Assembly (NCBI GenBank): GCA_044892525.1
Contig: CM097885.1
Span: 101,804,001 to 101,868,000 of the forward strand
Origin: Schmidtea polychroa
Lineage: Eukaryota
Direction: 5' to 3'
DNA length: 64,000 nucleotides
Below are positions 3,095 to 62,710 of the stretch, piece by piece. Each line of letters starts with the position of its first letter. The stretch's first letter is position 1. Under the pieces are notes generated by a model. The model was not told where the DNA came from. It worked only from the letters and a program-made list of their open reading frames with translations, and ran no database searches. A program made the position numbers and the translations under genes.

Positions 3095-3127
<33 letters not shown>

Positions 3128-3865: not shown

Positions 3866-3892
<27 letters not shown>

Positions 3893-3949
3893 GAAATAAT
3901 TACTCCAAGTAGTTTGCAACTACATCAAGTAATAATAATAATAATATAT

Positions 3950-5370: not shown

Positions 5371-5378
5371 TTAATGGA

Positions 5379-41440: not shown

Positions 41441-43579
41441 GTGGTAAAAATAGAATTTGAAAAACGTTTTGTCTTACAAGCTATCCGGGCAATGGAAATC
41501 AACAAGATCATAATTGAAAATGTTGGAAAATTCGATGGCAAAAATACAGATGTGGAAGAATGGTTTGACAAATTCGAAATTATTTTGGAAGCCAAGAATG
41601 TGAAAAATGTCATGAATGTAATGCCAATTTTACTTGAAGGGCAATCTTATGCAGTTTCCAAACAGTTAAAGAAAAGCAATACGACAATGGATTTTAGTAT
41701 GCTGCAGAAGGAATTATTGAAAACCTTCGGTATGACCGAGCAAGAAGCTTTTACGAAACTTTTACAGAAAACGTTATTAGTGGGTGATAACTTGGATGTC
41801 CATGTAAATGAATTAAGCTCACTGTTGGAATGTTCAGGTGATCTACTAACCCGATTTTTTGTAAATAGTTTACCAAGTGATTTGTCAAATCAGCTCATGA
41901 TGTCAACAGGAACAACAATGAATGAGTTAGTCCCTCAAGCAAAGAAAATTGCAAGTCATCAAATTTATGACAATGAAACGAATGCAGTAGTAGTACCAAG
42001 ATCAGATAGTGGAAGACAAGCCAATCGAAAATTCTATATATGCAATAGTGCTAATCATGTGGTAAGATACTGTCCAGAAAGACGCAACATTAGATATGCA
42101 AAATGCAGTATTATGGGACATATTTCAAGGTTTTGCAAGTCGGGAAAAGATCAAGGGGCTACACACAATGTGGAGTCGGGTGTGGCCCTAAGAATTGTGA
42201 ATATGTGAGACTCCTTAAAGTAAATGGTGATGTAAAAGCATGTTTAATTGATTCGGGCAGCACTACCACTATAGTAAAAGGAAATACACGAAATTCTATG
42301 ACGCGGTAGCGATGCTTGATGGTTCAATCATATATGCTGAGCGAAGTAAAGTTGATATATGGGTTGGAGATAAGTTATTTAATATTGATTGTTTAATATA
42401 CCCGAAACTAGTATCCAATTATGATTTAATTTTAGGAGTGAATGCTATTAATATGTTTGGTGGAGTTCGATTGAATAAAGAAGCCATATTCGGCTGTGAA
42501 GAAGCACCTTGTCACGTAGCGTGCTCTAGTAGTAGTATGTCAGAAATATTGAAGGAAAGCTTTTCTGCGAGATTTGAAAACGAGAAATGGATTGTCAAAT
42601 GGAATTGGAAGTCAGAGCCGCCGACATTTCTACCTAATAGAAATTCAAACTTTTATGATAATTGTAGTAAGGATCAGGAGACGATGGTTAATGGGAAGAG
42701 ATATGCGCTTACGAAAATGGAATTTGGATTGAATATCGCGCCAACGATAATGACAGAGATTGTGAATAAAGTATTGAACAACAATGAATCAATCAAGAAT
42801 AGCACAAATTCATACATAGACGATATATTCGTAGATGAATCTAAAGTTAAAGCAAGTAAAGTAAGTGCAGAAATGCGTAAATTTGGTTTGATATGTAAAG
42901 AAGAAGAAAAGTTCAAGGATACTCTCTGTGTAAGAGTATTAGGTATTGATGTATTTCGAAAGAATAATGAACTACATTGGAAAGGATCGAACAATATTCG
43001 GATAAATGAATTAAATGAAGGGATTTCAAGAAGAGAGCTGTATTCGTTATGTGGCCAGTTAGTTGGAATTTATCCTGTGTCTGGGTGGTTGCGGCCAGCT
43101 TGCTCATATATCAAGAGGCTATCCAGTGGAAATTAGGATGATTCAATAGAAAATCATATCGTTGTCAAAGTAAAATGGTTATTAGAAAAACTGAATGAAA
43201 GAAATCCATCGTCAGGTATTTGGAGTGTTCCCAGCAATCAGACAGGCTTAATTTGGTGCGATGCAAGTTCGATCGCCATTGGAATTGTATTAGAAATGGA
43301 AGGTTCAGTGATTGAAGATACGTGTTGGTTACAAAAACCTGATGATTCAAGACACATTAATTTGGGTATTGTGAAGGGTATTAATTCATGTATTAAATGG
43401 AATCTAAAGTACATCAAAATTAAATCCGATAGTAAATCAGTTGTGTGTTGGGTTAACAGCATATTATCAAGCGACAGAAAAATACATACAAAAGCAAATT
43501 CAGAGTTGTTAATACGACGAAGGCTGGAGCTTTTAAAAGATCTAGCGATTGAGTATGAACTTTATTAGGAGGTTCATCC
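41441..43579 (+). mobile_element. Gypsy-like LTR retrotransposon A (gag-pro-RT-RNase H relic)
   Basis: Gag with two degenerate CCHC knuckles, protease LIDSGST, RT RYALTKMEFGLNIAP...YIDDI (upstream RT motifs apparently deleted near 42670), and RNase H WCDAS...IKSDS. It is interrupted at 43580 by the LTR of element B. Confidence 0.85.
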
Positions 43580-46500
43580 TGTAAAACATTAAAATCAGTT
43601 TTTGCTTCCATAAAATTTATTTCAGTAAATATTAATATCAAATTATATCTTCTTTAATCTTTCTTATTTAAACAAATTTTCTACGAAGATATTTTTAATT
43701 AAAATATCTTCTTATATTTTTTTTAAATATTAATCTAAAATTTAATTTTTAAAATTTTCAATTTAAAAATTTCTTCATCATAAAACTTCCTCATATCTCC
43801 CTTCTTAAGAAATTTTTAAGTTTTTCCACATTTCTTTCGATCCTTTTTCCATCTTCATTTCTTAAGATGTATCGTCTGTCATGCACTTTCTCTATCACTT
43901 TGTACGGACCTTCATACCTGTCCTGGCCTTTGTGGCGTGTTTCTACTTTTACTAATACTTCTTCTCCTACATTGAATTTTCTCCTTGTTTGTTCTTCTAG
44001 TTCTTCCTTTATCGGTATTTCTTTGGACCCGTACCATTTTTCCCTGTTAATCTTTTTTCCAAAAACTATCTCTGTCGGGCTTTTCCCTGTCGTTTTTTGT
44101 TTGGTTGCATTTAAAGTGAATTCGACTTCTGGTAATATCTCTGCCCAATCCGTCTTCTTTCTATCCTGTAAAGTAGCATTTATCAAATCCCGTATTGTCC
44201 TGAATTGTCTTTCTATCTGACCGTTTGTTTGGTGATGGTATGGACTCGAAAAACATAATTTAATATCTAGCATCTTTGTGAATTCTCTCATCATTCCTGA
44301 TTCAAACGCCTTTCCGCAATCAACTCTTATCTCCTTTGGGCATCCAAATCTTAAAATCCACTTTTCTAAAATCGTTTTCTTTATTGTTTTTTCGTCTTGT
44401 TTTGTTATCGCTGTCAAGACTTGATACTTACTATACTGATCTATTATGCCCAATATATACTTCTTACGTCCTTTTGTTTCTGTCAACGGTCCACATATAT
44501 CCACGAATATAATTTCGAACATTTCCTTCGAATCTTGTTTTTTTTACTGGTTCTTTCGTTGTTATTGTTAAAGCCTTGGTTTTTTGACAAATCTCACAAC
44601 TTCGAATAATTTCCTGAATCTGACTCCACAGGTGTTTTCCAACATATCTATCTTTCATATAATCGGCAATCTTCTCGACTCCAGCATGACACAATAGTCT
44701 ATGTATTTCCTTTATTGTTTCTTGTAACTCATTTTCAGGTATCATCGTTTTCTTTCGTACTTCTTCTACCATTCCATGTTGGATGTTGCTTCTTCCCTCT
44801 TCTCTGATCGAGTCTAGTAATCTGTTTTTTTATCTTTCCTTTCTTAGCTTCTTCGTGGGCCATTTGACATTGAACACACGTGTCACATTTAGTTCTCGAC
44901 ACCATGTCTGCATTTTGGTGATTAATACCATTTCTGTATTCTACTCTTATATCTAAACTGCTCAAATAATTGATCCATGTTTGGAATTGTGAAGTAATCG
45001 GCTTCTTGGTTGTCATCATAAACGTTATTGCTTTGTGGTCTGTCCTGAGCGTGAATCTTCTTCCGTAGAGATAGTGCTTAAAATGAATGCAAAAATAATA
45101 TACCGCCAATAATTCCTTTCTTGTAATACAATATCCTTTCTCGTGGCTCGTCATCGAGTGTGATCCATACGCAATTACTCTTTCCTTTTCATCTTTATCT
45201 CTTTGTGAAAGTACTGCTCCAATGGTATCGAAACTAGCGTCGGTATCTAAAATGAACTCCTTTTTCAGATCCGGAAAACATAAGATTGGCGCCGTCGTGA
45301 GTGCTAATTTCAATCCCTCAAACACGCTATTCGTTCCTTCACTCCATTCTAATTTTTTGTTACTTGGTCCGCTACATAATTGTTCTAACATCCTTGCCTT
45401 CTTTGCATAATCACTGATGAATCTTCTATAATAATTGCAAATACCTAAAAAGCTTCGGAGTTTCTTTACGCAATTAGGCTTCCCAAAGTTCTGTATGGCC
45501 TGAATTTTAGATGGGTCTGTCTGTACTCCTTCCTTGCTGATTATGTGTCCTAAGAATCTGATTTCTTCCTTTATTATTTGGCATTTTTCTGGATTAATCC
45601 TTAGGCCTGCTTCCTCAATCGCCTTTAACACTTCTCCGAGTATTGTATAGTTTATCTCTTTACTGCTTGAATAAATCAAGATGTCGTCCAAATACACCAT
45701 TGCTCCCTTTATTTTGCCTAATACTTTTGTCATCATTTCTTGGAACTTACCTGGTGCTGCTGTAATTCCAAACGGCATTCTGTTGCGACAATATTGTCCG
45801 TTCTTTGTTGAGAAAGCTGTTTTCTCCTGTGATTCTTCTTCTAGTTCCACTTGGTAATATGCATTACCTAGATCGATTGAGCTGAAAAAGACGGATCCTC
45901 CTAACAAATCCAACATCTCGTCTATGTTTGGCATTGGAAATGCCTGCCTCTCTGTTACCGCGTTCAGCTGTCTAAAGTCCAAGCATAGTCTAATATCCTT
46001 TTTCTCTTTTTTCCATACACATATTAGCGGTGTATTCCATGGATAGTTACATTTCCGTATAATTCCATTTTCGTACAAATTTTGTATTGCTTCTTCAATC
46101 TTTGATTCCAAATTTAGTGGTTGGCGATATAGTTTTATGTTTATCACCATCTTGTGTTTTACCAAATGTGTGCGACCCACATCCCATTTATCTGCCATAA
46201 ACACGTTTCCACTGTTTGTTATAATTTCCTTTAATCTGCTATCTTCATTGATCTTTAACTGTTCCAACGCTCGTATCAATCGTTCTTCATCCTTTATTTT
46301 TCTGCCAAATTTGCGCTTCAATGTTACAAATATAGTTCTTGTCTTTTTCACTAGCCTCGATATCTTTAGTTTTTAACAGTCTAAATCCAAATGTTTCTTG
46401 TAATTCGATTCCTCCAATCACATCTGGTGTCACTTTCTCCGCCACAATGAATATAACTTCCTTCGAAACATTTCCAATGGTTACTTGCACCTTCGTTTTC

Positions 46501-46842
46501 CCTATTGTCTCGATCGTACTCTCTTTTGCACATCGTAACTTATCGTCACTTTTCGTCAATTGTTGTCCTCGTAGCTTGTTAAAACAGTTCACACTCATTA
46601 CATTGATTCTTGCACCAGTGACTAATAAACAGACGAAATTTTCCCCATTCATCCTTACTGTTATACTAGGCCTTCCTTGCATTTTCCCATGAAGCAAAAT
46701 ACCATAAATACGACAAGCATTAAAAGCAGGTTGGCGTCGGAAAATAAAAGATTTTTTCTTCATAAGAGACAGGTTGGAATTATGGCCAATTTTTATGTCG
46801 AAATTCGATTAAAAGGGCATACACCTGAAATGCTGGAAAGGT
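43580..46842 (-). mobile_element. pol: Gypsy LTR retrotransposon B: protease-RT-RNase H-integrase plus 3' LTR (43580-43793)
   Basis: LLVTGA (protease, D>V), FSSIDLGNAYYQ, YLDDIL, LDTDAS, TDHKAI, HxxxxH...CxxC, integrase DICGP...VDCG...QTNGQIER. The PPT AAGAAGGGAGA is adjacent to a 214-bp TG...CA LTR. Confidence 0.92.
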
Positions 46843-47438
46843 TGTTATGAATATAATAGCAGCATACACCCCTTGAACGACTTCACCGACGAAGGGTATT
46901 GGAACACAGTTCGACAATAAAACCGTTCGCCAGCGAAATCTTTCTCTGGGGCTAATTATAGTAAATAATATAAGCTGAATTAAATAATTCAGCTTAAATA
47001 CAAATGCAAATAAATGATGCCCATGAAATAAATAATTACATAATTATGTTAGCTTAACAAAACAACTAGATTCATGTTTTAATTTTTCAATAAAAGTTAA
47101 ACGAATAGATCTGAACGATTTAGGTAAGACGACCACGAGCAAAAATAAATTTCAGAGTCAAAGAAAATTTTTGTCACTGGTTGAATTAGTAATAAAGTAT
47201 TTATTAGGAAGATCCCTTTCGATGTTTCCAGGTTGAGGCTATAGGGTGATGATAAGTAAATGACTATCCATTTTGGCGGTAAATTGGTCATCGAACTTAC
47301 GACACGGAACACTATTACCATCAGAGGATAACTATTCGTTCGAACCACTGTTTTACGTCTTAGCGGATTGATGAGAAAGATGAAATTTTTAAAAGGGGAA
47401 AAGACCATTATCGTTAACCATCCTTATTTATTAACAGA

Positions 47439-47801
47439 ATGTCTCAAACAAGTGAACCCGACGAAGCGGAATACAGGCAGAGGATCACGCGGCTCCGGAC
47501 CCGGTACATCTGGTACCGGATTCATGATTGGAACCGGGGGTTGGACCTAGATAATTATGGTCCGGTCATCCGAAGTGGCCCCGAGCCCGATGCCCCGGCG
47601 TGGATGAAAGTAGAGCCGACCAACAATGTGTTGCGAGAAGCCCGCGATCGAGCGGCCGGCGAAGTAGACGAGTCCCAGAGGCGACTGAAGAGACTCGAGC
47701 TCCAGCTCAGAGCCGAAGCAGAGGGAGTAACCCTCGAAGAGCTAGAAGAGGCAGATGCTCCTCCACGAAAACGAGGGAGGCCCCGTAAGAATCCTGCCTA
47801 A
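47439..47801 (+). CDS. LTR-encoded 120-aa protein with coiled coil, acidic patch and C-terminal AT-hook
   Basis: Intact ATG-to-stop ORF, GC-rich, ending EELEEADAPPRKRGRPRKNPA. Confidence 0.65.
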   Translation: MSQTSEPDEAEYRQRITRLRTRYIWYRIHDWNRGLDLDNYGPVIRSGPEPDAPAWMKVEPTNNVLREARDRAAGEVDESQRRLKRLELQLRAEAEGVTLEELEEADAPPRKRGRPRKNPA

Positions 47802-48112
47802 GCCGCCAGCAGTGGCAACTGGAATAACACTATCTAACAAATTTAATCCAATGATGTGGTGTTTGCGTTTGACTTCATTAGTAGCTAGTATAACAAATTA
47901 CAATTTTTGTTCATTAACCTTTTGACAACATCGTTCATCATGTATCTTCGTAGTATAATAAATTGTTTTTCTGTTATTACATTTGGACTTTATGGCTTAT
48001 GGAGTGTATTCATGATTGAGGTGACCCTTCCCATCCTTCTTCTATTAATTTTATGCAATTAATCGAATCACCTTTACGCACATGGAAGCGAGCGATGAAA
48101 TTTTATTATTGT

Positions 48113-48479
48113 TTTCCTTCAGTGTACTCGAAAATTACTCGAAAACCTACGCAAGGACCGCGAACAAGCCCAGCAACAAGCCGAAGACCTCCGAAGTCCG
48201 GTCGAGAAGCTTAAAGTCAAGTGCCGAGAGCTCGAAGGTACTTGGTTCAGTCCGGCTGAGATGAAGAAACGAACGACACACATCTCGCGACTCCAGACCC
48301 AGGCGAAGCAGGACCAACTCGAAATCCGAGCACTGAAGTTGCAAGTGTGCACGCTCGAGAGTAGATTGAACGAAAGGTTCATCCAGGACACTCTCCGAGA
48401 ACAGATTCGTCCACTTCCCGTGGAGCTGGCCAAGATATACCCCCGGCCCAGACGAGCAAGCCGAAACGTAAACGGTTAG
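48113..48479 (+). CDS. LTR-encoded coiled-coil ORF (frame open from ~48113; possible splice acceptor ending 48123)
   Basis: FLQCTRKLLENLRKDREQAQQQAEDLRSPVEKLKVKCRELE...MKKRTTHISRLQTQAKQDQLEIRALKLQVCTLESRL; preceded by ttgttttccttcag. Confidence 0.5.
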
Positions 48480-48962
48480 GGCGAAATACGCGAGAGAAAT
48501 TGAAAAGGGCCTGGCTGACCGAGCAGGAAAAATCGAAAGAGCCTGCAGCCACTCCACGATCCTGAGGAATGTTTGAGAGTGCGACCCCTCCTGGGTAAAA
48601 CCGACATTGTGATATTGTAGTGTTTAAATAAATAATTTCATTGTCTGATGGGTATGTGATTAAACTTGTGATTGTCCCGAGCAGGACGGTCGACAGAAAA
48701 GAGTTTGGGAAAACAATCTCGATAAGGGACCGAAATAAATCGGACACATGCCTTCTATCGGCCGTCCGTGAACCCTTGGAGTGCTCGACAATTATAGTGC
48801 TCTTAACGCGCTCACTTTTTGCGAGTACTCCACCCCTTGGTACAGCACCAACGTTGATTACTCAACGGGTACCAAGTGGAAAATAATGTTGCATGCTGGG
48901 TTACGCTGGTAACAGCACTAAAGAGCAAAATATTTGGTCATCAGTAACCCACCATACAAATT

Positions 48963-48980
48963 TGGGGGCTCAGCCGGGAT
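48963..48980 (+). promoter_or_regulatory. Primer binding site, tRNA-Pro
   Basis: TGGGGGCTCAGCCGGGAT matches 16/18 positions of the canonical tRNA-Pro PBS TGGGGGCTCGTCCGGGAT. Confidence 0.88.
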
Positions 48981-49673
48981 TGTAAAAATTTAATTGGTGA
49001 AAGAACCCGAGAATAGATATAATGGGGAGAGAGTAAAAGCTGATATAAAGTGATATGCATTCAAGAACGAGCAAATTGCTTTCCCAAACACTTAAACTTA
49101 GTACATGGATATGTGAATATGATGGAATATATGTGAAATGTTTAAATGAGTAATGGGAGTTTTAAAGTGTGTCAATAGATGAATGTATTGAAAGTGAGCA
49201 TGAGAATACTGTACGAATAGCGTAGTAATAGAATGAAATGATGATAAACGAAAATTAAAACTAAAACAAAATATAGTAAAGTTTTTAAATATTAACGATT
49301 AATAAAATGTAAATATACGAAATAATAAAAATTTAAAAATAGGGGAAAAGGGGGGATAGCACGCTAATAAAAATAAAACGAATGAACAGCGTAATTAAAC
49401 TTAATTAGAAAACGTGTAAATTATGGCGATAATGAATGGGATATGGGTTATATATAATGAAACGATTATAATAAAATCACAAGATCATGAATGAAATTTG
49501 CGCGTGATAGAACATAAAACAGAGGAAGACGGGGTTGCTAAGAGTGATAAGTAGAGGTTTATGGAAGCACTAATAAAATAAGGTATTCATGATATTAGAG
49601 GGAAAACGATAAAAGGGGAAAACGACGCGGAGTATTAATAAAAAGAGCATTTTAATTAATAAGTCTTAATTAG

Positions 49674-50156
49674 ATGGAATCAACCGACTACATTACAAAG
49701 AGACTCGAAAAATTCGTAAATTTAAAACGCAATTCGTTACAACGGCTAAATCGCAAAGCGGACCAGTTGGTGAAAATCCAAGACGAGATTAGCTTGAATC
49801 CAAGACCGCAAGCTTAGGAAATATGTGTAATGATGAAAATAGCAACGCCTAATGCAGAATTGACCACTAAAAGAGTCTACCAAATTCAAAATTTACGATT
49901 AGATAATGCCAAATTTAACATCAAATGGCAGGAGATAATGATAAAAATGGAAACAATCGAAGAAGAAATTAAAGAAGCAATCGAACATCAAGTTAAAGAT
50001 TTTAGAAAATGCTTCATATGCAGAATCAATGAAATACGAGTAATGACGATCCCATGTGGTCATTTATGTTACTGCGAGAATTGCGCAATGAAAATTAAAC
50101 GATGCAACGTATGCGATACGAACGTTAGAGAGAAAATTGTAATATACCTCCCGTAA
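49674..50156 (+). pseudogene. Coiled-coil + IAP-type C3HC4 RING E3 ligase ORF in the retroelement leader (frameshift near 49820)
   Basis: CFICRINEIRVMTIPCGHLCYCENCAMKIKRCNVCDTNVREKIVIYLP aligns to the XIAP/cIAP RING including the terminal hydrophobic tail. An upstream frame MESTDYITKRLEKF... starts at 49674. Confidence 0.85.
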
Positions 50157-50894
50157 GGAGATGTTGTCAAATAAATTTCTTTTGAATGAATATAAAATAA
50201 GATAATTATTAAATTATATTAAAAATCCATTATAGCAACCGAAAGGTATAAAACATAAGATGAACATAGACATATAAAGGACACATAATACGTTAAATAA
50301 ATAGACAAGCAACACAGCAATTAGAAATATTAAAATCAAAATTGAATGCAGGACTGATCATAGTCGTATGAATGAGCTGATCGATAAGATCAGTACGATT
50401 GTTATTTCCAATTTTCATTTCTTCCTGTTTTATTATTTTGGCATAGAGAGATACAATAATGAGGGGATGACAAGTGGATCGTCCTTACGACACTTGCCCG
50501 GATGGGGAAATCCTGATCACCCTGATGAGAGAATGTAGTAGGATCCATCTCAAATGTTGGGGAGTTTCTGTCGAGTGACTGATCACCACTTGTGGTAAAT
50601 GAACCAACGCGATTATTATATTTTTTTGTCTGGGAGACTGGGATTGACTAAAAGGGTGAATAAAAATAGAAAAATAAAATAAAAATTGAAAACGCGCGCT
50701 AAACGTTAAAAATTTAATCCGAGAGCAGCTGCGGATTTGAAGAAACCATTTTTGGACTTCAAATCGAATGAAGAGTAATTATTTTTTCCCTAGCGAGTGA
50801 TGAGGCACCCGAGTACAGCGGCTAACCACCGGACTGTAGTGTCCAGGATATTATCAGCCAAGGGACTGATGATGCTGGATCACCCAATACAAAA

Positions 50895-51860
50895 ACCTGG
50901 ATACCACACCGAGTATTGGGCGCATTTTTTTGTGAGTTGCTAGCGGGATTTGATACAAAAACACGGAAGGGTAGCGATCGAGAGAGACCCAGTTACCTAC
51001 ACCGAGTATTAAGGAGCCCAGTGAAACGGTTGTGAGATGCGAGTCAACCGGTAAAGGACTCGTACTCAATAGGCAACCAAGATTGGACTAGTTGTGAGGC
51101 GGAGGACCGAAAGTCAACTGCATATCCAATTTCCTTTTATTTTCACTAGTCGGGAGATCTGATTCATCACTTTTGAGAATCACGATCGAGGCGATTAGGC
51201 ATTTCCGTGTTTTTTAAATCCTGACAGATAGGATGTTTTTCTTCGTGATTATTGCTAACAGGGGTCGGTACAAAACCCGGATGCCCACACCGAGTACCGA
51301 TAGGCCCAGTGAAACGGCGATGAGATTAGAGTTACCGGTATTAGACTCTTTTCAATAAGCGGCCAAGAATTGAGCCAGTTGTGAGGCCTCAGCAGATTAG
51401 GAATTTGAGTAGGAGGAGCCTTGAATTTTTAATTAGTCCGAAAGTCAACTGTCAACTCAATTTAATCGCGGTAGGGACGATAGTAGGTGTAAAAACCGAA
51501 GGCTTCTGGGGGTTGAAGAAACCTCATTTAGGGCATTTGAAACCGGTCAGGGACCGAAGACTGCGAATACGGCGTAATGGTGTAAAAGCCCAGGCGTCTA
51601 GGAGTCGTAAAAGACTTCAAATTATGATTAAACCGGCCGGAAGCCGATGCCGACGCGGAGGTCTAACAAACCAAAGCGTTGATGGGTAATAGTAGATTAT
51701 ATGGCGTAACGGTGTAAAAGCCCAGGCGTCTAGGAGTCGTAAGACTTCATGAGATTAAAATGAGTTGATTAAACTGGCCAGAGAGCCGATGGTAATTGAG
51801 TGAAATGATTTAAATGAAATAAGAGAGTTGATTAAACCGGCCAGGGAGCCGATGGTAAAT
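50895..51860 (+). repeat. Imperfect direct repeats in the 5' leader
   Basis: cacaccgagta... at ~50903, ~50999 and ~51287 (the last two extend ~130 bp); ggcgtaa.ggtgtaaaagcccaggcgtctaggagtcgtaa at ~51571 and ~51703; gattaaac.ggcc...gagccgatg three times. Confidence 0.85.
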
Positions 51861-52617
51861 GAATGTAGACGCAGAGATCGCGCGAACCAAAGCATCGATG
51901 ATTAACTATGAAATTGATTAAATTGGAATAGATTAAGTGCGACAAATATGTAATGAGTAAAGGAAAATTATGATGAAGCGCCGGCGCAAGAGAAAATGAA
52001 ACCAGTTTTTGCATGGGGAAAAGCGAACGAATAGATAGTAGTTGAATTATTGAATTTTATTTATTAATGATACGTTTATTTTGATATTTATGTGATTGAT
52101 ATTATATTTATATGATGATTATAAAAGGGATAGATAATTGATACGACTATATAGATAATTGGTACGAGTTATAGATAATTTAAAATCGACTTAAAATCAA
52201 AATGGGGTGAATAACGAGAAGTGTAGGAAAGCTAGAAAATTTGAAGCGAAGGAGCAGTAAAATAAAGGGGAAATGGAAAGTAAATGAAGGGTTTAATAAA
52301 GAGAATTTATGATATGTACTAGAAGTGTTAATTATTTTAGAATAAAGCAAACAATTCAGAAAGAAAATCAAAGAAATCAAGGAAGCAATAGAAATCAAGG
52401 GATATAAAGAAATCAATTAAAAGCGAAGAATCAAAGAAATTAATAAAACCAAATCCAAGAAGAATTAGAGAATCGTAAAGATTAAAGCGAGACAATAATT
52501 AGAAAACATCAAGCTCGATCGACGAAGTAGAAAATTTATCAAAGGATAGCAAAAGGAGGAAAAATTGATAGTATAGCTAGCCGAACCAGGCGAAAAAGTA
52601 AAGGAAACCTCAGTTTA

Positions 52618-55600
52618 TTGGAAAAGGAAGAGATAGAAAAAGCCAAGACCAACAGACAACTACACAGGAAACCGGCATCAGTGGAAAGATTATTTGAATC
52701 AAACAGTTTAACTAACGAATTTGAGAACAGCGACGATTTTAAACGAACCGAATTAGATCCAATAAGCGACGCCGAATCAACTGACGAAGAGGAAAATATA
52801 TCCGAGACAACAGAGATAACCGTACTGTGCCAAGAGATAATGTCGGACGGAAACACGAATGAACAAAGGGTAACGGACCCACCAGGAACAAGTAATGTTC
52901 ACGTCAACATTGGAGAATTCAGAGAGAAATTTCGAGGAGAGCCATTCGATGGAAATATAAACCAGCTGGAAACGTTTATAAAAGAATTCGAAATATGCAT
53001 TACGATATGTCACTGGCCAGACATAGTCATACGAGAGCGAATACCCCTATATCTAAAGGGAAGCGCCCAAGATGTATATTTAGAGGCAAAATGCGATGCA
53101 ACAAAGTTGAGAACATGGAAAGAGATCAAAGAGTTTTTAATAAAAACCTTCGGTACCGAAAAGGAAGGAAATCGGAAAATGTTGGACTTTCTACATCGAA
53201 AGCAGAAATATAACGAATCCAATGCACTGTACGCATGTGAAATGAAACGATTAGCAAGAGAAGCCTTCGATTCAAATCAACCAGTTCCGGAAGATAAGAT
53301 AATAGCCGTATTCGTAGATGGTATGAAGCGAGAGGATATACGAGCAACCTTGGGATGTCGAGCACCAGAGATGCCGGAAGAAGCACTAAAAATGGCTAAC
53401 AAATGTGAAACCTACTTAACACCAATACAAGTAGCAGCTATGACAGCAGCCCCAGCAGCTCCAGCAACAACAGCAACAACTACAAACAACCAAGTCAATA
53501 ATGCAAATCCAGTAATGAATCAATTCATCCCAGGATCGCAACAGTTGTTCAAAACCCCACAAACAAGAAACCAAGACAATAGAGGTAATATTCAAAATTT
53601 TACTAATAATTTCAGGAACAACGACATTAACAATCGAACGTGCAATATATGCCAACGATCAGGGCATTGGAGCAATGAATGTTATAGAGCAAGGATGTGT
53701 CAAAAGTGTGGGAGAAGAGGACACACGGAAAACGTCTGTAGCGGACCCATGAAGTCTATTGGCAGAGGAGGAACCAGAACCTGCTACAATTGTAATCAGC
53801 CTGGACACATGGCAAGGGAATGCAAGATGAGAGTGAAACCAAATCAACCAGGATCAAACAATCCAATTCAGAACACACAAATCAACCTCATGCAGGAAAT
53901 CGAACAATTAAAAGATATGATCCAACGAATACCGGTGAATAATCAACAACAACGAATCAACATGATGCAGAGCACCGAGGAAATCCGGAAGCAACCAAGC
54001 AGGCAACAACAAGATCAACAACGAATCGAATGGCAAAGATTACAAAACGAAGAAGCCAGAGAAATTCAAGAAAGATGGAAACAACGGGACGCGAATCCCG
54101 GAAGAATAAATATGATGAGATTAACAAATAAAGAGGAACCGCACACTGCGGAGCAGTGTGTTAACAACGAAGGGAGTGGTCCGATAATAAACGAGGAGAT
54201 AAAAACGACAAAAGAAAATGAGATTGATCAACGGACAGAATTAAGCAGTGAAGAGAAAATACAATTGATTAAAGAATTTACCCAAGAGGAGAAAGAAAGG
54301 AGACAAAAAAGAGATGAGAGTAAAGATGAATCAAAAAGTAATGAAATAGTTACAAAAATTCGAATTCAGAGGGTACTACTACAAAAAATCGAAGACAGAA
54401 TCAAAAACGAAAACCCTACATTAACTAAGGAACAAATAAAAGAAAAAGTGAAAGAGCATTGGTTCAGGAAAAATGAGTGGTTCGAAAAGAAAGAACCACA
54501 TACCAAAGCTAAAATAAACATGCTGAGACAAATGCGGAGTGACCAGACGGATCAGGAAGACGAGAAAAGTGAGGTGAGTAGCCTGGGAGGTGAATTATTT
54601 CAGTCAAGTGAGGAAAATAACGAACCAAAAACACCTCCAAACAGTGAAACACCTCAAAGTAGTGATGAGAGTGAAAATGATGACATGAAATCAATGATAG
54701 AAAAAGATGATGAGGAGATATTTGAGGAAATTTTCGACACAGTAACAGAAATAGAGCGAAATGAGAGCTACATCAACGAGTTAATATACAGAAAATGCTT
54801 AAAACTTATAACTCAAGTATACCAGTGTGAAGGAGGTATAATAACGGCAGCATGGAAAGAATTAACAACAAAATATAAAGAGAAACTAAAGGAAGCAGAC
54901 CCAGATCAATATCAAGTAAGTATTCAACACCCTGAGATTCAGATACAGACTATTGAATTAAAAGGAACAAATACTGATGAACTGTACAACTGGGTACAGG
55001 AAAAAATGGGAACGAGCCATAAAAATAAACAATTATATGTCGATGGTTACAAAGTTAAAATGGGCATACATTTGGTAGATGCGATGATATGGCCAAACGA
55101 AACGAACATCTTAACCTTAGAGAAAACCAGAGACGACGAATCAGTGGCAGAAATGTTCAAGAAAATCCAACAAGTGTTTAACAATGAAGTGGAACCAGAA
55201 TTGGAAAAGATCGAACGGAAAATAATGAAAGAAAATCAAATAATCTTAGTCAAACAAGCTATCGATCAGGCAAGGAAATATATTAATAGACTAAGAGAAA
55301 GATGGCCGCAACTAATGAAACAATTTGTCAAAGACGTACGAGACACGGAAATTATGAGATTCGAAGATAAACGAGCGACAGAATTGATATCAAAATACGG
55401 AGAATACGAGAGAACCAAATGTGAACAAGAAACGATAAAAATAAAGGTGAAATTGCCAAATGAAGAGAAACAAATAATAGAAGTTAATCCCGATTGCCAA
55501 GTTGACGAGTTAGTGCAAATCATAGATCAAGAGATCATCCAAAAAGCTCGAGAAAATAGTGAGGATGGAATGATCGAAGATGTGATAATAATGTACAACC

Positions 55601-55995
55601 GGCATATGTTAGAAAGAGGAGACCGAACTGTAATTTACGAACTAGGAATCTGGGAAGATGGAACCGTCATCAATATAATCGCGATGGATGAACCATCTGG
55701 TGGGCACAAAAACGCCACCAAAACCGATCAACAAATCAAGAGATTCCAATGGGGAATGAGAGCCAAGATGGACCGAATAATAGATATTTATAACCATTGG
55801 CTAAAAGATGATAAACTAAAACTAGCAGCATTCAATGATAAAGATTGCAAACTGATACCATGGAAAAAGGTGTGGATTGAAAGTGAAGCTCGATGGGATT
55901 GGGAACAGCAAAAGTTGGAACCAAATTGGATAGATAATATACCAGAAGAGATTGCAGCAGTATGGGTAAGAGAGAAACCGATCGATACTTACTAG
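52618..55995 (+). CDS. gag: Gag with three CCHC zinc knuckles (53641-53823), coiled-coil/acidic linker and two ubiquitin-like domains (~54910-55125, ~55430-55680)
   Basis: Capsid-type PFDG..QLETFIKEFE...W...IPLYLKGSAQDVY; knuckles CNICQRSGHWSNEC, CQKCGRRGHTENVC and CYNCNQPGHMAREC. The ORF ends at an in-frame TAG followed by DILPQE. Confidence 0.92.
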   Translation: MEKEEIEKAKTNRQLHRKPASVERLFESNSLTNEFENSDDFKRTELDPISDAESTDEEENISETTEITVLCQEIMSDGNTNEQRVTDPPGTSNVHVNIGEFREKFRGEPFDGNINQLETFIKEFEICITICHWPDIVIRERIPLYLKGSAQDVYLEAKCDATKLRTWKEIKEFLIKTFGTEKEGNRKMLDFLHRKQKYNESNALYACEMKRLAREAFDSNQPVPEDKIIAVFVDGMKREDIRATLGCRAPEMPEEALKMANKCETYLTPIQVAAMTAAPAAPATTATTTNNQVNNANPVMNQFIPGSQQLFKTPQTRNQDNRGNIQNFTNNFRNNDINNRTCNICQRSGHWSNECYRARMCQKCGRRGHTENVCSGPMKSIGRGGTRTCYNCNQPGHMARECKMRVKPNQPGSNNPIQNTQINLMQEIEQLKDMIQRIPVNNQQQRINMMQSTEEIRKQPSRQQQDQQRIEWQRLQNEEAREIQERWKQRDANPGRINMMRLTNKEEPHTAEQCVNNEGSGPIINEEIKTTKENEIDQRTELSSEEKIQLIKEFTQEEKERRQKRDESKDESKSNEIVTKIRIQRVLLQKIEDRIKNENPTLTKEQIKEKVKEHWFRKNEWFEKKEPHTKAKINMLRQMRSDQTDQEDEKSEVSSLGGELFQSSEENNEPKTPPNSETPQSSDESENDDMKSMIEKDDEEIFEEIFDTVTEIERNESYINELIYRKCLKLITQVYQCEGGIITAAWKELTTKYKEKLKEADPDQYQVSIQHPEIQIQTIELKGTNTDELYNWVQEKMGTSHKNKQLYVDGYKVKMGIHLVDAMIWPNETNILTLEKTRDDESVAEMFKKIQQVFNNEVEPELEKIERKIMKENQIILVKQAIDQARKYINRLRERWPQLMKQFVKDVRDTEIMRFEDKRATELISKYGEYERTKCEQETIKIKVKLPNEEKQIIEVNPDCQVDELVQIIDQEIIQKARENSEDGMIEDVIIMYNRHMLERGDRTVIYELGIWEDGTVINIIAMDEPSGGHKNATKTDQQIKRFQWGMRAKMDRIIDIYNHWLKDDKLKLAAFNDKDCKLIPWKKVWIESEARWDWEQQKLEPNWIDNIPEEIAAVWVREKPIDTY

Positions 55996-56001
55996 GATAT
56001 A

Positions 56002-56520
56002 TTGCCACAAGAATTCCAAAATGATTTACAACCAGAAGAAGATGAAGAGATACGAGAACCGGTAAGGTTAGCGCCATTCACGTGGAAAATTGAGAATTGG
56101 ATGGAAAAGATAAAATCAGCAAAGGAAGAGAAAATCACACGATTAGTAAGTCCACCGTTCTACTCAGGATTAGGTGAATACAAGATGAAATTGCGAATAT
56201 ACCCGAACGGAGACGAGGTAGGAAAAGGAAGTTACGTATCAGCATTCTTCATCATCTGCAAAGGGAACTATGACGACAAGGTACCATGGCCGTTTAGCAG
56301 AAAAGTAACGATAGCAATCGAACACTGAAAGATAGCCTTAACGTACATAAAGAAACAATGAAACCAGATCCAAGGAGCACCTGCTATCAACGACCGACGA
56401 CATTAGAAAATATCGCTTCTGGGACGTCTAAATTAATACGTCTAAGTTACATTGAGAATGATTAGTCAATATTCGTGAAAGACAATGCCATCCAGATCAG
56501 AGTGGAGGTGGAAACAGAAA
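56002..56520 (+). pseudogene. TRAF-C (MATH) domain within the polyprotein (frameshift ~56326, in-frame stop 56463-56465)
   Basis: FTWKIENW...SPPFYSG..EYKMKLRIYPNGD..GKGSYVSAFFII.KG.YDD..PWPF..KVT, then KPDPRSTCYQRPT..ENIASG...FVKDNAIQIRVEV: the classic TRAF-C motifs. Confidence 0.92.
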
Positions 56521-57480
56521 AAGTAATGAACCAACGACTGAACATACCGGAAAACCAACCGAGAATCTGTATGATGAGGAAAAGAGTGCCTGATTCAGGG
56601 CATCTACCAATAGACGCCGACGCAGATGAGGAGGAAGCAGCAACATTGCTAGAAGCACAAAAGTGTAAGGAGTTGATGGAGATATTACAAAACGGTGCGA
56701 AAAATCGTCGACGAGCGGTAGTAGAACTAGCAAAATGGATAGCCGAATCATGCAAAAGAATTCAAAACCTTCGAAAAATCGTTAAAGCGATTGAGGAATA
56801 TCGACGGGTATACGTATGGTACCCTGAGCAATTCGGTGAAATCATCCGGAAATGGAAACAACAAGAGTGGGCCGAAAACTCACCCGAGAAATATCAACTA
56901 AAAATATTCTTGCCAGATTTCGAACCAATGGAAAAGGAATTCTACACGACAGCCAAAGTCAGGGAAGTTAAAAAGAGAATACTTTATGAACTTCCGTTCC
57001 ATTTACAACACGAGGGGCGATCATTAGACGACGATGTTGAAATTGGTGTGACACCACTCCAAGGAGAAATTGTGAACAGACTAACGGTGAGTAAAATTGC
57101 AGGTAGAGAATTAAGGAGAAGAGAGATAAAGCAAAAATCATCCACCCAACCAGGAAGTTTGGACACACCAGAAGTCCCAAATGCGGTTAGTGAAGTGACG
57201 ATCGAAACAACGGGAGAAGACGAAATACTAGACGAATTACAAGAGAGAGTAGAAGCAGGCGAGATTATGAGAGCATCACAATCAGGAGATCTATTTATGC
57301 GCGCAAAGACAACCAGTAGAAACGACAGAAGCCGAGACGGATTTAGATAATGTAGAAAGAGGTGACAATAAAGAAGTAACTACAACCGACGAATGGAGCA
57401 ACTGGAGAGTAGATCCAGGAGCGACCACGTCAAAAGATATAACTTACAATCCGCCAAAACGGAAAGAAACCGGAACAGCT
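56475..57480 (+). pseudogene. Polyprotein segment with helical region, third ubiquitin-like domain (~56890-57090) and acidic linker (frameshift ~57300)
   Basis: KYQLKIFLPDFEPMEKEFYTTAKVREVKKRIL...LQHEGRSLDDDVEIG fits a beta-grasp pattern. An alternative frame from ~57305 runs into ATG 57481. Confidence 0.65.
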
Positions 57481-60075
57481 ATGGATCGACGAACAAGAGG
57501 AAGACCAAAAACAGATAAAGCAGAGGCAGAACCAAAATCCAAAATTCAGGCGCAAATGGAACAGGTAAAAACTAAAATGGATAAACTAAGTGCATTAGTA
57601 AAACAAGTCAAAGTGAAGACAAGCGTCCAAGAACAAGAAACACGATGGATAAACGACTTATTAGCTAACATGTTAGCGTTAGCAAATCCAGATGTGAAAA
57701 GAGTAATGAGGAAGGATAATATCCCAACCGAAGCCAAACAATTATGGGCGGTATTGAAACCGATAATAATGAAAATCATGGATAATAAAATTCGATTAAC
57801 GTTAAAAGATCCCGTGGAACTCAGATTAATTGTGGAACATCTATTAAGCAGATCAGAGGACCAAAATCGATATTTAGTGGGATTAGCATATTTAGTATAT
57901 AACGTTATTGGTCAATATAAAAAACGAATGCCAAATTACAACGCAACTGGTTACGAATTCACAGCAACGGAAGTAATCAAACGATCAATAGAACCATATA
58001 TACTTGAACAAGGGGGATGGAGAAACTTCATCGAATCAACTGGGAAGAAAGATCAAACGGAAATGATGCAAGCAAGGTTACGCGACTTGCTAACTGAATT
58101 CGAAGGGACAATCAATATGAACGATCCAAGAGCAATCCGAAAAGGAATGAATGCCATAATAACCACAATATTGATATGGATGATGTGTATCAAAGGAACA
58201 GAGTCATTTGCAGTGTACGACTGCGACAACATAAAAATCCATGAGAAATATTCATTAAAGGATACAGAAGACTGTAAAGCGGCAAACCCAAGAAAATCAC
58301 AAAGAGTCATGGCATCAGTCTCGTATAATGTATATCAAGAAGCAGATTTCATCAAAACCATGGTCCAAGAATGTACGGTAACTAGAAAGATATTCGCGCA
58401 TCACTGCGGTTCATCCTCCCACTCAACAATCATAGAACCGGGATTAGAATCGACAGTAATATTACTATCAAGAGAGGAATGCGAGGAAGGATTCCGGTCG
58501 GGGAGAATCCACTTAAGACAAGGGATTGAAATTGCTGCAGAACCAGGGAAAATAAAAACGACTCGCGTGTATACGGCAGGCAGAATAACCAAAGGAGATG
58601 GAACATGTGAGACAGGAACATACACCCTGAACGGACAACTGGTTAGTGGAGTGGTCGTAATAGAAAGCTACGAAGCTAAATTAGAAAGGTATCAAGGTTA
58701 TTTCGACCCTGACACGCAAGCAATGAAGAAATACCCAAGCTGTCTCGCATCAGATCGATCATGTTCAACCGGAATGTCAACTCTGGTATACCATGCAGAT
58801 CAGAAAGTATGTCGACTAATGTTACTCAAGACAGCAATATTCGAAGAAATCCAAGGGAAAGTGTACAGTGAACCAAAAGGAGAAGCAGAAAAACGAGCGA
58901 TGGAAGAGTTGAGAGCAAGGAAAGGATTCAGAGAAGACGTAATAACCTCGAAATTGGAATCGGAAGTGACACCCAAGGCGATAATCTCCAAAGACGATGG
59001 AATAGGAATGAGGTTCATAAAGAACAAAGTGGTGAGTAAATGCGATGAGATGGTGATCAGCACCAATTATAAAGGGATCTACTTGTCACGGAGAACCCTA
59101 GCAAATGCAGTCGGAAGACTAAGCGAAAAGGATGTCAAATTATATTTATATGCTAATAACAAAATGGATTTCTTATATCACAGAGGATTAACATCTACGG
59201 AAAAAGTCTATCATGATCTGTTAAGAAACGATTGCCTGCTCAACAAAGAAATATTGAGAACAAAATTAGCAATGGCAATTACAAACCCAGATAACGCAAT
59301 TCCGTTACTACCGCTGCAAGAAGGATATTTCGGACGAATCGTGGGCGAAGTAATGTACACCTACCAATGCAAAAAGATAATTGCAAGATTGCCGGAAAAC
59401 CCTATTATACCAAGGAATAAATGTGCAAACGAACTCGAAATCATCCACGAAGGCAAACCCAGATTTGTGCAAGCAGTCACCAGGATAATGAACCCGGTAG
59501 AGTTTCAACCAAACCTGTTTAATTGTAGTAATGCATATGGACCAATGTATGAAAAAGAGGATGGACAATGGGTGCAATTTCCAAGTAAAACAATCGTAAT
59601 AGCACCCAAGAAATTTGGATTGTCGGAACTAACAACAGAATTAGAATTCAAGCCGATAGACGTATCCCAGAGTGGATTATATACACCAAAAGATCTTGAA
59701 TCAGCAAGAGCCCACATGTTATTTCCAGCACAGAGACAAGCGATCTTGTCAAATATAGTGACTATTTCTGGAAGAAATAATTATGGGGAGAGCCCGAATT
59801 ACGAGCTATTATTATCACCAAGTCACTATCAACAAGCAACAGCAAATATGATGAAGGCTATGTGGGGTCGATTTTTGGTATTTGGCCAAATGATGGCAGG
59901 AATACTCGGAATTATTCTGATAATACAAATAGTCAGAGTGATACTAACTCAGATGTTAGCATGTTTTGACATCTATAAACGCGAGAGAAAAGTAAATTGG
60001 AAACTTACAATTGGATTCTTACCGTTCTTAGCGAAAACAATGGTGTTGCATGGACACTCAAAGGATATTTATTGA
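57481..60075 (+). CDS. env: Bcl-2-like domain (~57640-58040) + internal signal sequence (~58150-58206) + chuvirus/Monjiviricetes-type fusion glycoprotein with TM (~59870-59960)
   Basis: BH1-like QNRYLVGLAYL and BH2-like YILEQGGWRNFIE; glycoprotein motifs AVYDC..YSL..C, QECT....HHCG..SH, GDGTC, ANNKMDFL, NDCLLN, GYFGRIVGEVMYTYQC and CANEL...TRI. Confidence 0.88.
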   Translation: MDRRTRGRPKTDKAEAEPKSKIQAQMEQVKTKMDKLSALVKQVKVKTSVQEQETRWINDLLANMLALANPDVKRVMRKDNIPTEAKQLWAVLKPIIMKIMDNKIRLTLKDPVELRLIVEHLLSRSEDQNRYLVGLAYLVYNVIGQYKKRMPNYNATGYEFTATEVIKRSIEPYILEQGGWRNFIESTGKKDQTEMMQARLRDLLTEFEGTINMNDPRAIRKGMNAIITTILIWMMCIKGTESFAVYDCDNIKIHEKYSLKDTEDCKAANPRKSQRVMASVSYNVYQEADFIKTMVQECTVTRKIFAHHCGSSSHSTIIEPGLESTVILLSREECEEGFRSGRIHLRQGIEIAAEPGKIKTTRVYTAGRITKGDGTCETGTYTLNGQLVSGVVVIESYEAKLERYQGYFDPDTQAMKKYPSCLASDRSCSTGMSTLVYHADQKVCRLMLLKTAIFEEIQGKVYSEPKGEAEKRAMEELRARKGFREDVITSKLESEVTPKAIISKDDGIGMRFIKNKVVSKCDEMVISTNYKGIYLSRRTLANAVGRLSEKDVKLYLYANNKMDFLYHRGLTSTEKVYHDLLRNDCLLNKEILRTKLAMAITNPDNAIPLLPLQEGYFGRIVGEVMYTYQCKKIIARLPENPIIPRNKCANELEIIHEGKPRFVQAVTRIMNPVEFQPNLFNCSNAYGPMYEKEDGQWVQFPSKTIVIAPKKFGLSELTTELEFKPIDVSQSGLYTPKDLESARAHMLFPAQRQAILSNIVTISGRNNYGESPNYELLLSPSHYQQATANMMKAMWGRFLVFGQMMAGILGIILIIQIVRVILTQMLACFDIYKRERKVNWKLTIGFLPFLAKTMVLHGHSKDIY

Positions 60076-60084
60076 ATAAAAAGA

Positions 60085-61041
60085 TTGTTGAAAATATTAA
60101 CGCAAATGAAAGGGACAGACGAAGAAGTCGGACGTAAGTTCAAAGTGATAATGAGATTAGAAGCAGAAAGAACTCAAGAGAAAGCGAAAAGAACCGGGAA
60201 GTGGAAAAAGTGGATGAACCTCAGACGAAACGATGACAGCGACAACGACAATGATGATTTCGACGACGATGATAATAACCAAGGAGGAGCAATGCTGATA
60301 AACAAAAATACAGCCACTTGGGAAAACGAAAAAATGAAACCATGGGGATCACCATATTTACAGGCATCAACTAATGGACCAATGCGACGACCAGGAACAA
60401 TGAGAGAACGGATAAGAATGGGAACCGGAAGATTACCCATACCAAACATTTATCCAACAGCTTATGAACCAAATTGGGCAGCAATGGATCCAACGATGAT
60501 CAAACAGGCTAAAAGTGTAGAACAAGAAGTTGAGACACGAACGATTGCGGTATTGCAGACACCAGCCGGACCCTCATTAAACATCACGGTTGAAGTAAAC
60601 GGAATAGAGATGGATGCAATGATCGATACCGGAGCAAACTTTTCGGCAATAAATATGAATATGCTACCAGGTAGACTATGGCCATGCATTGAAGAGACAA
60701 CCATGGATGTAATAACATGCAGCAAACAATCCATAGCGACAGTAGGAAGAGTATGGTCAACGATTGAATATAGAAGGGTTAAAGTTACAACGTACCTCGC
60801 AGTCATTAGACAGCTAAGCGTATCATGTATAATTGGAACAGATGTAATGCCGGAATTGTTGAAAGAAATTGTGATTGATTTGAGTTCCATGAAATTAAAA
60901 GATAAAACGGGACAGATATGCACAATGAGAACAGAAGTGAGATGTTCCGAAAAAATGATAATACCAGCACGTACCCAGACCATATGTTATGTCAAAGTCG
61001 ATAATGAAGCCAAAGGAAATATGATATGTATATTTTTGTAG
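60085..61041 (+). CDS. pro: Linker + retropepsin aspartic protease (DTG at 60625), in frame with env across a single TGA
   Basis: VEVNGIEMDAMIDTGANFSAI...SCIIGTDVM, followed by the Gypsy-type post-protease spacer IIPARTQTIC. Confidence 0.9.
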   Translation: MLKILTQMKGTDEEVGRKFKVIMRLEAERTQEKAKRTGKWKKWMNLRRNDDSDNDNDDFDDDDNNQGGAMLINKNTATWENEKMKPWGSPYLQASTNGPMRRPGTMRERIRMGTGRLPIPNIYPTAYEPNWAAMDPTMIKQAKSVEQEVETRTIAVLQTPAGPSLNITVEVNGIEMDAMIDTGANFSAINMNMLPGRLWPCIEETTMDVITCSKQSIATVGRVWSTIEYRRVKVTTYLAVIRQLSVSCIIGTDVMPELLKEIVIDLSSMKLKDKTGQICTMRTEVRCSEKMIIPARTQTICYVKVDNEAKGNMICIFL

Positions 61042-61043
61042 AT

Positions 61044-61802
61044 ATGAATTATTTAAAAGAAAGAGAATCAACGAGTAACGAAGAAAGAAGGTCAAACGAC
61101 CAACCCGAACAAAGCCAGAATACGATACCAATCAAACAAGAACCGATGAAATATTATAGTAATAAATGGAGAGTCAGCAAGAAGTTGTTCAGAACAAAAA
61201 TTGCAAATCAAAATGAGAGATTACGAGATTGAGACAGCAAATTGTTCAATCAAGGCGATTAATAAACACTGTCAAGCAAGAAATTTTGAGGGAAATAAAT
61301 TAATCGAAACGAAAAGAGACAGAAAATAAAAACCTGAGACAAGAGATAGTAGAGTTGAGAGCTCAGGCAGTAATCGAAGACTATTGGAAATCAGAAACAA
61401 GGAAGTTGAAATATCGATCAAGTTTATATCGAACAGTTAGAAGCACAATATGCTTATGCAAAAACGAGAATGCGAGAAAGTAAAAAAGTCGAGAAGAGAA
61501 ATGCAAAACTCAAGGAAGAGATCAAGGAACAAAGAGAGAAAACAGAAAAACAATGGAAGTTGAAGGAAAATTACCAGAGAATTTTAAATCAAAAACGACG
61601 AAGCATGCAGACACTGCAGACGACAATGACCATCAAGCAGAGAAAATGGAAAAGTAAAGAGAAGCAATTACAAGAAATACCAGAATTAAAGAAACAGTTG
61701 GTAGCAATGCAACTCGAAATAATAAGAATGAACGAGTTGAGTAAAAGACGAGCACCTGAACCTCCCGTAAAATTAAGGGATGAGGTCGGTGACTCCCAAT
61801 AA
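61044..61802 (+). pseudogene. Disrupted coiled-coil accessory ORF
   Basis: K/E/Q-rich heptad-like segments in the fragments 61026..61232 and 61470..61802. Confidence 0.55.
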
Positions 61803-61861
61803 ATGAGACAAAATAACTGTGTAAATAAATTGTAAATAAAGCCAAGTAATTATTGTTAAAG

Positions 61862-62710
61862 ATGAGAAGCCTAATCGTGGTGATGATTATAATGACAATG
61901 CCAAGAATCCTGCAAGCTGAAGAATCAATGATCAGATGCCAGAAAGAATACCCATACCGAAGAGAAGATAGCACCTGTAGTAGCTTTTAATCGATCTGCG
62001 AAAAACCCAATGAGGAATGCGAACAAATCAACTCGCAATGTTCGCAATGTCCACAAACAACAGAAAATTCGATGGAAGTGCAAATGGCTCAGACAATAAA
62101 AACAAGCTTGGAACAAGAAATGAAAGTTATCAGAACCCAGATAGCAACATTTGCCAAACAATGTCAAAGCCAGAAATCAAAGAAAGAATCCCAAACAGAT
62201 CCAGCCGCAATGAGAATGATAAAAACATTAGAGGAAATAAAACAACAAGTAATAACAGCCGCCGATGGACGTTCAAGCAATTGCGGAATGGTAGTGAAAT
62301 CTTTAGAGGAAATGAAAGGAAAAATAACTTCCATCATCAAAGAGGAACCCAGCATTAAAAAGGAAGTGACGAAAAACTTGAAAGAAATAACAAGAGAAAT
62401 CTTAACTGCCATGAACAGGAATCCGATGAACTCCGAAAAGATGATTAAAACCCTTGAAGAAATTAAAAAGAAAGTTGTCAGCTCGGAAGAAAACAAACTC
62501 GACAAACCCGAAAAGTCGGAAATTGTAGATATAACCCAAGTGAGAGAAACTATGAACAAACTCAAAGTAATAGAACCAAGAGAGTCTGAACCCCTCACAA
62601 AATCGATCCTATTAGCGGCGAGCCTAATGGTAAATATCACCATACTGAGCCTGATTGCACTCAAACCCAATTTCAGCAAAGAAATAAACAAAACCTTCAA
62701 ACTAAAATAA
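61862..62710 (+). pseudogene. Accessory type-I membrane-protein-like ORF: signal peptide, Cys-rich head, repeated coiled-coil stalk, C-terminal hydrophobic anchor (one in-frame TAA)
   Basis: MRSLIVVMIIMTMPRILQA-EESMIRCQKEYPYRREDSTCSSF*SICEKPNEECEQINSQCSQC is in frame with 62072..62710, which contains SILLAASLMVNITILSLIAL. Confidence 0.65.

Follow-up and report, generated by a model that had tools for sequence, protein, structure and literature searches.

Results

The window, by which we mean the whole 64,000-nucleotide stretch of Schmidtea polychroa DNA that was analysed, contains a short gene for a protein with a helical N-terminus and a C-terminal RING, located between the primer-binding site (PBS) and gag of an LTR element (Table 1). 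It is highly likely that this element is a decayed and truncated giant Ty3/Gypsy element of the Burro/GYPSM1 type and that the gene is its accessory gene, of which working copies encode 160 amino acids with two long helices and an IAP/IDOL-class RING, and that the copy in the window is dead. The architecture of the element and its AT-rich flanks fit a planarian genome. The original prediction described the gene without identifying its element as one of the Burro type, for which an upstream accessory ORF and apoptosis and ubiquitin modules have already been described (in the available parts of PMC6431247 and of PMC13465017, citing Lee et al. 2026).

Table 1. Features of the element and its accessory gene, with positions in the window
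Feature	Position	Strand	Remarks
Probable 5' LTR	47000..48958	+	Right edge inferred from the CA end before the PBS; left edge not defined
Primer-binding site, 18-mer	48963..48980	+	Reverse complement ends in CCA
Accessory gene, helical N-terminus and C-terminal C3HC4 RING	49674..50156	+	160 codons, broken; open relatives P0001 and P0002; diverged relative P0005
RING domain (eight zinc ligands spaced 11/3/6), followed by a tail of 13 residues in which +11 is Tyr	50010..50153	+	
Non-coding spacer from RING gene to gag	50157..52530	+	Two pyrimidine-rich splice-acceptor-like sites, 50793 and 51149; short two-copy repeats
gag frame, Retrotrans_gag and three CCHC knuckles	52531..55995	+	E 1.4e-07; first ATG 52840; weak ubiquitin-like region near end
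MATH/TRAF domain, disrupted by one stop and one change of frame	55996..56465	+	MATH_2 E 8.9e-20
Polyprotein piece between MATH and BCL2-like region	56466..57350	+	No significant family
Weak BCL2-like stretch, then Monjiviricetes-type fusion glycoprotein (env-like)	57271..60075	+	PF24664 E 1.7e-69
Retroviral-type aspartyl protease	60076..61041	+	RVP E 7.9e-06

Element surrounding the gene

A candidate PBS is present, as had been predicted, and it lies directly after the CA end of the probable LTR. For its first nine bases the window has a single occurrence, where 0.04 would be expected, and one occurrence is found in 4 of 100 shuffled sequences. We take this 18-mer to resemble a tRNA-Pro PBS; ARAGORN detected no tRNA gene in the window that could serve for comparison. 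The probable LTR also holds two GC-rich frames with no significant match in Pfam or PHROGs. The first (47439-47801, + strand) encodes 120 amino acids ending in KRGRPRK, which is presumably an AT-hook-like motif, and the second (48099-48479, + strand) is a coiled-coil frame of 126 codons that lacks an ATG.

The ATG of the accessory gene follows the PBS by 693 nt, and the gene stop precedes the open frame of gag by 2374 nt and the first gag ATG by 2683 nt, in agreement with the predicted distances of about 0.7 kb and 2.5 kb. The leader contains 27 ATGs ahead of the RING gene, and a further 51 lie between the end of that gene and the first ATG of gag. Because of these many leader ATGs, and with acceptor-like sites located after the gene, expression of the RING gene probably needs splicing or an internal start. 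The repeats in the spacer comprise a pair of about 115 nt (50987-51100 and 51275-51387, 74% identical) and the pairs 51567-51649/51699-51791 and 51762-51802/51825-51865. It is possible that the acceptor-like sites and these repeats represent spliced leader exons or RNA elements; an Rfam search of 46800-53000 gave a single chance match (E 0.81).

Downstream, the weak ubiquitin-like region of the gag frame (55396-55680, + strand) matches OTU1_UBXL, PI3K_rbd, UCH_UBL1, and UBX with E values of 0.006-0.06, which are below the cut-off. Of 36 weak PDB matches to the BCL2-like stretch, 35 are to Bcl-xL (best E 0.69), and Pfam gave no match there. The window copy is truncated after the protease, and at least five stops or frame changes interrupt it from gag to the end of the protease frame. 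No reverse transcriptase (RT) or integrase was found after the protease within the window by tblastn with the neighbouring Gypsy RT and integrase, no second LTR copy is present in the window, and Pfam scans revealed no ankyrin in the window copy. Two A-rich, element-like coiled-coil frames without a family match (61410-61802 and 61991-62710, + strand) are found at the place expected for RT, and these may reflect either an internal deletion or further accessory genes.

The remainder of the window carries several other features. A Polinton/Maverick-like fragment occupies 1-7886 (+ strand), of which 5379-7886 encodes a DNA polymerase B of the protein-primed type that contains an endonuclease VII motif. 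The ORFs upstream of 5379 have no Pfam match, and we assume from their appearance that they are capsid-like. An intronless ORF of 376 amino acids at 25543-26673 (- strand) has several hydrophobic segments and appears GPCR-like by eye; at E 0.01 it has no match in Pfam. Decayed Gypsy-like fragments are found at three further places, 41492-43560 (+ strand), 43791-46808 (- strand), and 19349-20262 (- strand), the second of which adjoins the Burro-type element head to head. Finally, an inverted repeat of 152 nt (94%) at 35615-36133, situated between two N gaps, could be a MITE-like element or an assembly artefact.

Reading frame of the accessory gene

The original prediction treated the gene as an intact ORF and overlooked a stop codon that interrupts it. 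Translation of 49674-50156 yields 47 residues, an in-frame TAG at codon 48 (49815-49817), and then 112 residues ending in the RING and its tail, and the longest ATG-initiated frame containing the RING is 49830-50156 (108 amino acids). The predicted start at 49674 stands, as the open relatives begin at the same Met. Compared with these open copies, the window copy has the one stop and three private changes with a mean BLOSUM score of -1.33. A stop in a gene of 483 nt fits the level of decay of the whole copy, given the breaks in the polyprotein region. The AT skew of the two gene halves is +0.29 and +0.33, as compared with +0.29 to +0.45 for the coding frames of the element and -0.14 for the host-like ORF at 25543-26673. 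No poly(A) tract was found at the RING gene, and the flanking repeat amounts to one AT-only 12-mer at most.

RING domain and N-terminal helices

The predicted terminal RING with its IAP-like motif and C-terminal tail is borne out by the domain search. Codons 113-147 form a C3HC4 RING, which passes the curated Pfam cut-off for zf-C3HC4_3 (E 2.4e-11). The motif PCGH..C..CA...CxxC is present in it, and the 13-residue tail ends in Y-L-P. The protein had also been described as lacking a BIR domain; motif and Pfam searches indeed detected none in the ORF, in its open relatives, or in any frame of 46000-64000, and the protein itself is not an IAP because it has no BIR. P0001 had no match in PHROGs, and no substrate-binding domain was recognised in the RING protein.

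The best PDB sequence matches of the RING are cIAP2, cIAP1, and XIAP (E 1e-9 to 6e-8), followed by CGRRF1, BIRC7, and MYLIP (about 1e-6), whereas the match to MDM2 is far weaker (E 0.02 or worse). Folding from three sequences was poor (pLDDT 46.9), and a usable model was obtained with an alignment of 54 sequences (pLDDT 81.5, with 95-98 in the RING). The closest structural match of the modelled RING is cIAP2 and the next is IDOL, with rmsd values of 0.6-0.9 A over about 60 residues, and the model also matches small BIR-less viral RING proteins and baculovirus IAPs; these fold matches are partly circular because the alignment is rich in IAP-class RINGs. A homodimer prediction with residues 84-160 of P0001 scored 0.00 without using the alignment and carries no weight for or against a dimer.

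In a tree of 153 RING sequences, only 27 of 150 nodes reached a support of 0.9 and no supported sister group emerged; the set included three vertebrate-like sequences that were later removed, and P0005 was not even grouped with P0001 and P0002. Judged from sequence and model, the RING belongs to the IAP/IDOL structural class, and it is as a class only that this assignment is supported, as the tree does not resolve an origin from IAP RINGs. The predicted IAP-type RING holds as a statement of structural class, for which IDOL/MYLIP fits about equally well; an origin from IAP RINGs is one possibility. The tree gives no supported placement of the RING with those of IAPs rather than with IDOL, MIB, neuralized, or viral RINGs.

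The heptad-like N-terminus of the open relatives has hydrophobic residues at 5-7 of 8 a/d positions in residues 1-42 and 64-105. The model places helices at 2-40, 47-56, and 61-110 before the RING, and the coiled coil predicted to precede the RING agrees with the heptad-like pattern and with the long first and third helices.

Relatives of the gene

A search with the 108-amino-acid piece returned two of six candidates, P0001 and P0002. Both are open proteins of 160 amino acids, identical to the window copy at 149/160 (93%) and 132/160 (82.5%) positions, respectively. When 1.84 billion representatives were searched with a profile, 1547 matched, and the best 150 of these were taken; P0003 and P0004, second and third in this search, proved to be tandem-repeat artefacts and were removed. 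When 149 stored proteins were compared with the window, P0005 was the only one among the best 150 of 1547 (the two artefacts removed) to match it outside the RING gene.

The alignment of P0005 to P0001 begins at Met1 and has 49/140 identical residues (35%) and one gap. Taken without the RING it still scores 162, where shuffled sequences attain 63 at most. Residues 1-48 of P0001, aligned to P0005 on their own, score 46, a value reached by none of 2000 shuffles. Length, start, zinc ligands, and helix pattern are retained across this gap of 35% identity. P0005 then continues into a Gag that is identical to the Gag core of the window at 113/176 positions (64%). Its RING stops before the last Cys pair and has no tail, and its Gag end diverges before the knuckles. 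P0005 may be a gene model, a spliced transcript, or a deletion product. Whichever applies, it puts a homologue of the RING gene in front of a related gag in another subfamily, which is neighbourhood evidence at best.

A later search returned 8 of 346 candidates and added a single new family member, P0152, whose N-terminus matches that of P0005 at 81/88 positions and is fused to a Sec7 domain. Like P0005, it may be a gene model, a spliced transcript, or a deletion product, and the fusion stems either from a chimeric gene model or from a transcript that joins element and host. Longer fused forms were found in none of 700 candidates by a search that was weak, as P0005 also escaped it.

Between P0001 and P0002, 14 of 25 changes are conservative, with a mean BLOSUM score of +0.96 against an expected -0.19 to -0.34 (P 0.03-0.08). 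A neutral sequence at this divergence would remain free of stops with a probability of 0.21-0.28. The pattern of changes may be taken as modest, marginal support for selection on the gene. The original prediction hinged on the presence of the ORF in other copies of the element, and here open copies exist and the diverged P0005 is joined to a closely related Gag. Because of these open 160-amino-acid relatives and the Gag-linked P0005, we consider the gene to be a lasting accessory gene of the element and not a stray insertion.

Residues for ubiquitin transfer

The three close copies carry Asp at the linchpin (+1), Val at +9, and Tyr at +11, together with Asn or Ser instead of Pro after Cys7. 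For comparison, 145 other RINGs among the matches listed were used, leaving out two artefacts, six matches of the later search, three family members, and one sequence without the pattern. In this set the linchpin is Arg or Lys in 96 and Asp or Glu in 11, Pro follows Cys7 in 100, and the combination of a missing Pro with an acidic linchpin occurs in 6. Among 82 RINGs with a 13-residue tail, +11 is aromatic in 79 and +9 is basic in 68. The unusual residues are known only from these three close copies, which are 82-93% identical, as the RING of P0005 ends before the last Cys pair.

In cIAP1, R606 (+1), R614 (+9), and F616 (+11) stabilise E2-Ub for transfer, with the last two acting in trans from the other subunit of the dimer (available text of PMC6349121). 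According to the accessible part of PMC12326332, an Asp linchpin weakens E2-Ub binding of RNF38 27.7-fold and Glu leaves trace activity, and XIAP with its Tyr linchpin is a weaker but working ligase. A basic linchpin, Pro after Cys7, and a basic +9 are typical of active RING ligases and are not strictly required. Strong stand-alone ligase activity is nonetheless doubtful, because these three ubiquitin-transfer features differ from the majority of related RINGs. Of the element-encoded E3 that had been proposed, the encoding by the element is borne out and the activity is doubtful.

Discussion

In the RING described here, the features related to dimerisation are kept and the catalytic ones are eroded, and for this reason we favour a scaffold over a stand-alone ligase. 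Tentatively, and with rather less than even confidence, we prefer the reading that the protein is a weak or scaffold RING acting as the dimer partner of an active IAP-class RING, for which we infer expression, dimerisation, the partner, and an effect on cell death. The protein would dimerise via its pre-RING helix, RING, and tail, and its active partner would come from the host, as an IAP, or from the element, as the BIR+RING protein reported for Burro1. The scaffold could contribute its aromatic tail in trans or could damp the self-ubiquitination of its partner. In this way the level of the IAP and the survival of the element-replicating cell might be tuned, as MDMX does for MDM2, and the N-terminal helices may serve oligomerisation or targeting in place of a BIR. 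Against this reading, a BIR+RING partner is not visible in the truncated window copy.

A somewhat unlikely alternative, which is the idea of the original prediction, is a stand-alone homodimeric E3. Its helices would bind a host substrate, for example a pro-death protein or a factor involved in silencing or restriction, and this substrate would be ubiquitinated by the RING. All eight zinc ligands, the first-loop Ile, the 13-residue tail, and the aromatic +11 are retained; small BIR-less helix+RING proteins labelled as ubiquitin ligases are common in large DNA viruses, and XIAP is active with a non-basic linchpin (available part of PMC12326332). However, the Asp linchpin and the missing Pro after Cys7, which occur jointly in so few related RINGs, along with Val at +9, argue against it, as does the fact that no substrate-binding domain is recognised.

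It is improbable that the gene is a 5' exon spliced onto gag to give a helix-RING-Gag protein with a role in the turnover of Gag, in handling RNA, or in assembling particles. P0005 has precisely the layout of this fusion, the 27 + 51 leader ATGs demand splicing or internal starts with acceptor-like sites at hand, and Burro accessory ORFs may alternatively be subdomains of the polyprotein (PMC6431247, in its available part). However, neither the last Cys pair nor the tail is present in P0005, and its likeness to Gag is lost ahead of the knuckles, which is what one would expect of a decayed copy or a gene model; the Sec7 fusion of P0152, with nearly the same N-terminus, points to chimeric gene models; no other fusion appeared among the 700 longer candidates, though that search also missed P0005.

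We give equally little credence to the gene being a passenger, that is, a captured RING fragment drifting in the element with no present function. The stop and the unfavourable private changes of the window copy would fit this, as would the apparent erosion of the catalytic surface, but over a wide divergence the gene has kept its length and start along with the zinc ligands and the helix pattern, and the stop matches the decay of the entire copy. Lastly, a separate insertion unique to this locus, such as a host retrocopy or a nested element, is very improbable: long non-coding stretches do flank the ORF on both sides, but P0005 is linked to a related Gag, the AT skew is element-like, and no poly(A) tract or target-site repeat accompanies the gene.

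Extending the preferred scaffold reading, we speculate that Burro-type elements carry a conserved BIR-less scaffold RING upstream of gag beside a BIR+RING gene directed against cell death, that the former heterodimerises with IAP RINGs to tune their turnover in the manner of MDMX, and that in some subfamilies it is spliced onto Gag as a particle protein with a RING-derived module. Taken as a whole, this proposal is a long shot. If the gene is kept in at least two diverged Burro subfamilies, a second, BIR-less RING would widen the toolkit of these elements for acting on host cell death, and the gene would offer a concrete case for a retroelement that regulates host IAP ligases through a scaffold RING.

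In the literature listings searched, no account of an ORF for a BIR-less helix+RING protein in front of gag came up, and the element maps of Grohme et al. 2018 and Lee et al. 2026 may show one. RING does not occur among the extra ORFs of bdelloid LTR elements (0 occurrences, PMC5408684), and the available parts of PMC8532177, PMC13238120, and PMC11410931 hold nothing on an upstream RING ORF. CERV of C. elegans Cer1 was considered as a RING finger and rejected, as "ring" denotes a multimer in the accessible text of PMC10309623. The apoptosis and ubiquitin modules of Burro and its upstream accessory ORFs are already published, and the BIR-less helix+RING ORF upstream of gag is apparently new, although it may already be mapped. 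Surprise is limited because the general theme has been published and this copy is dead.

Among known systems, the RING resembles those of cIAP1, cIAP2, XIAP, BIRC7, and IDOL (MYLIP) in its spacing, fold, pre-RING helix, 13-residue tail, and aromatic third-last residue. It differs from them in the absence of BIR, UBA, CARD, and FERM, in the Asp linchpin, in the lack of Pro after Cys7, and in the lack of a basic +9. RING proteins of pithovirus, iridovirus, and marseillevirus and short baculovirus IAPs are similar in size and in their helix+RING layout, with a likeness confined to the RING. In the MDM2-MDMX and RNF2-BMI1 pairs (PMC12326332, as far as its available text goes), a scaffold RING supports an active partner, which is the mode that we propose; the analogy is functional only.

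The closest parallels are found in the elements themselves. Burro/GYPSM1 elements are giant Ty3/Gypsy elements of Dugesiidae with the order gag (three CCHC)-MATH-BCL2-env-PR, and they carry MATH, BCL2-like, BIR, and ankyrin modules; an element of Dugesia tigrina has an accessory ORF upstream of the polyprotein that encodes MATH, and the copies in D. japonica are decayed (PMC6431247, available part). The window copy shares with Burro1-4/GYPSM1 the three-CCHC gag, MATH, and the mononegaviral-type env between gag and protease; a possible BCL2-like region, with weak matches only, lies at the expected place before env. It differs in that the upstream ORF encodes MATH there and helices with a RING here. 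In the window copy, which breaks off after the protease, RT, RNase H, integrase, BIR, ankyrin, and the 3' LTR are absent. Paired LTRs and a length above 20 kb are further traits of Burro/GYPSM1. The ubiquitin/SUMO-like domain that Burro/GYPSM1 elements have between MATH and BCL2 has no match at that place here, and the weak ubiquitin-fold matches lie before MATH. Finally, Burro1 reportedly has a captured IAP-like gene for B-IAP, a protein with BIR and RING that helps planarian stem cells to escape death by caspases (Lee et al., Dev Cell 2026, as cited in the available part of PMC13465017). B-IAP is an element-encoded IAP-like RING in the same type of element, and it differs from the protein described here in carrying a BIR.
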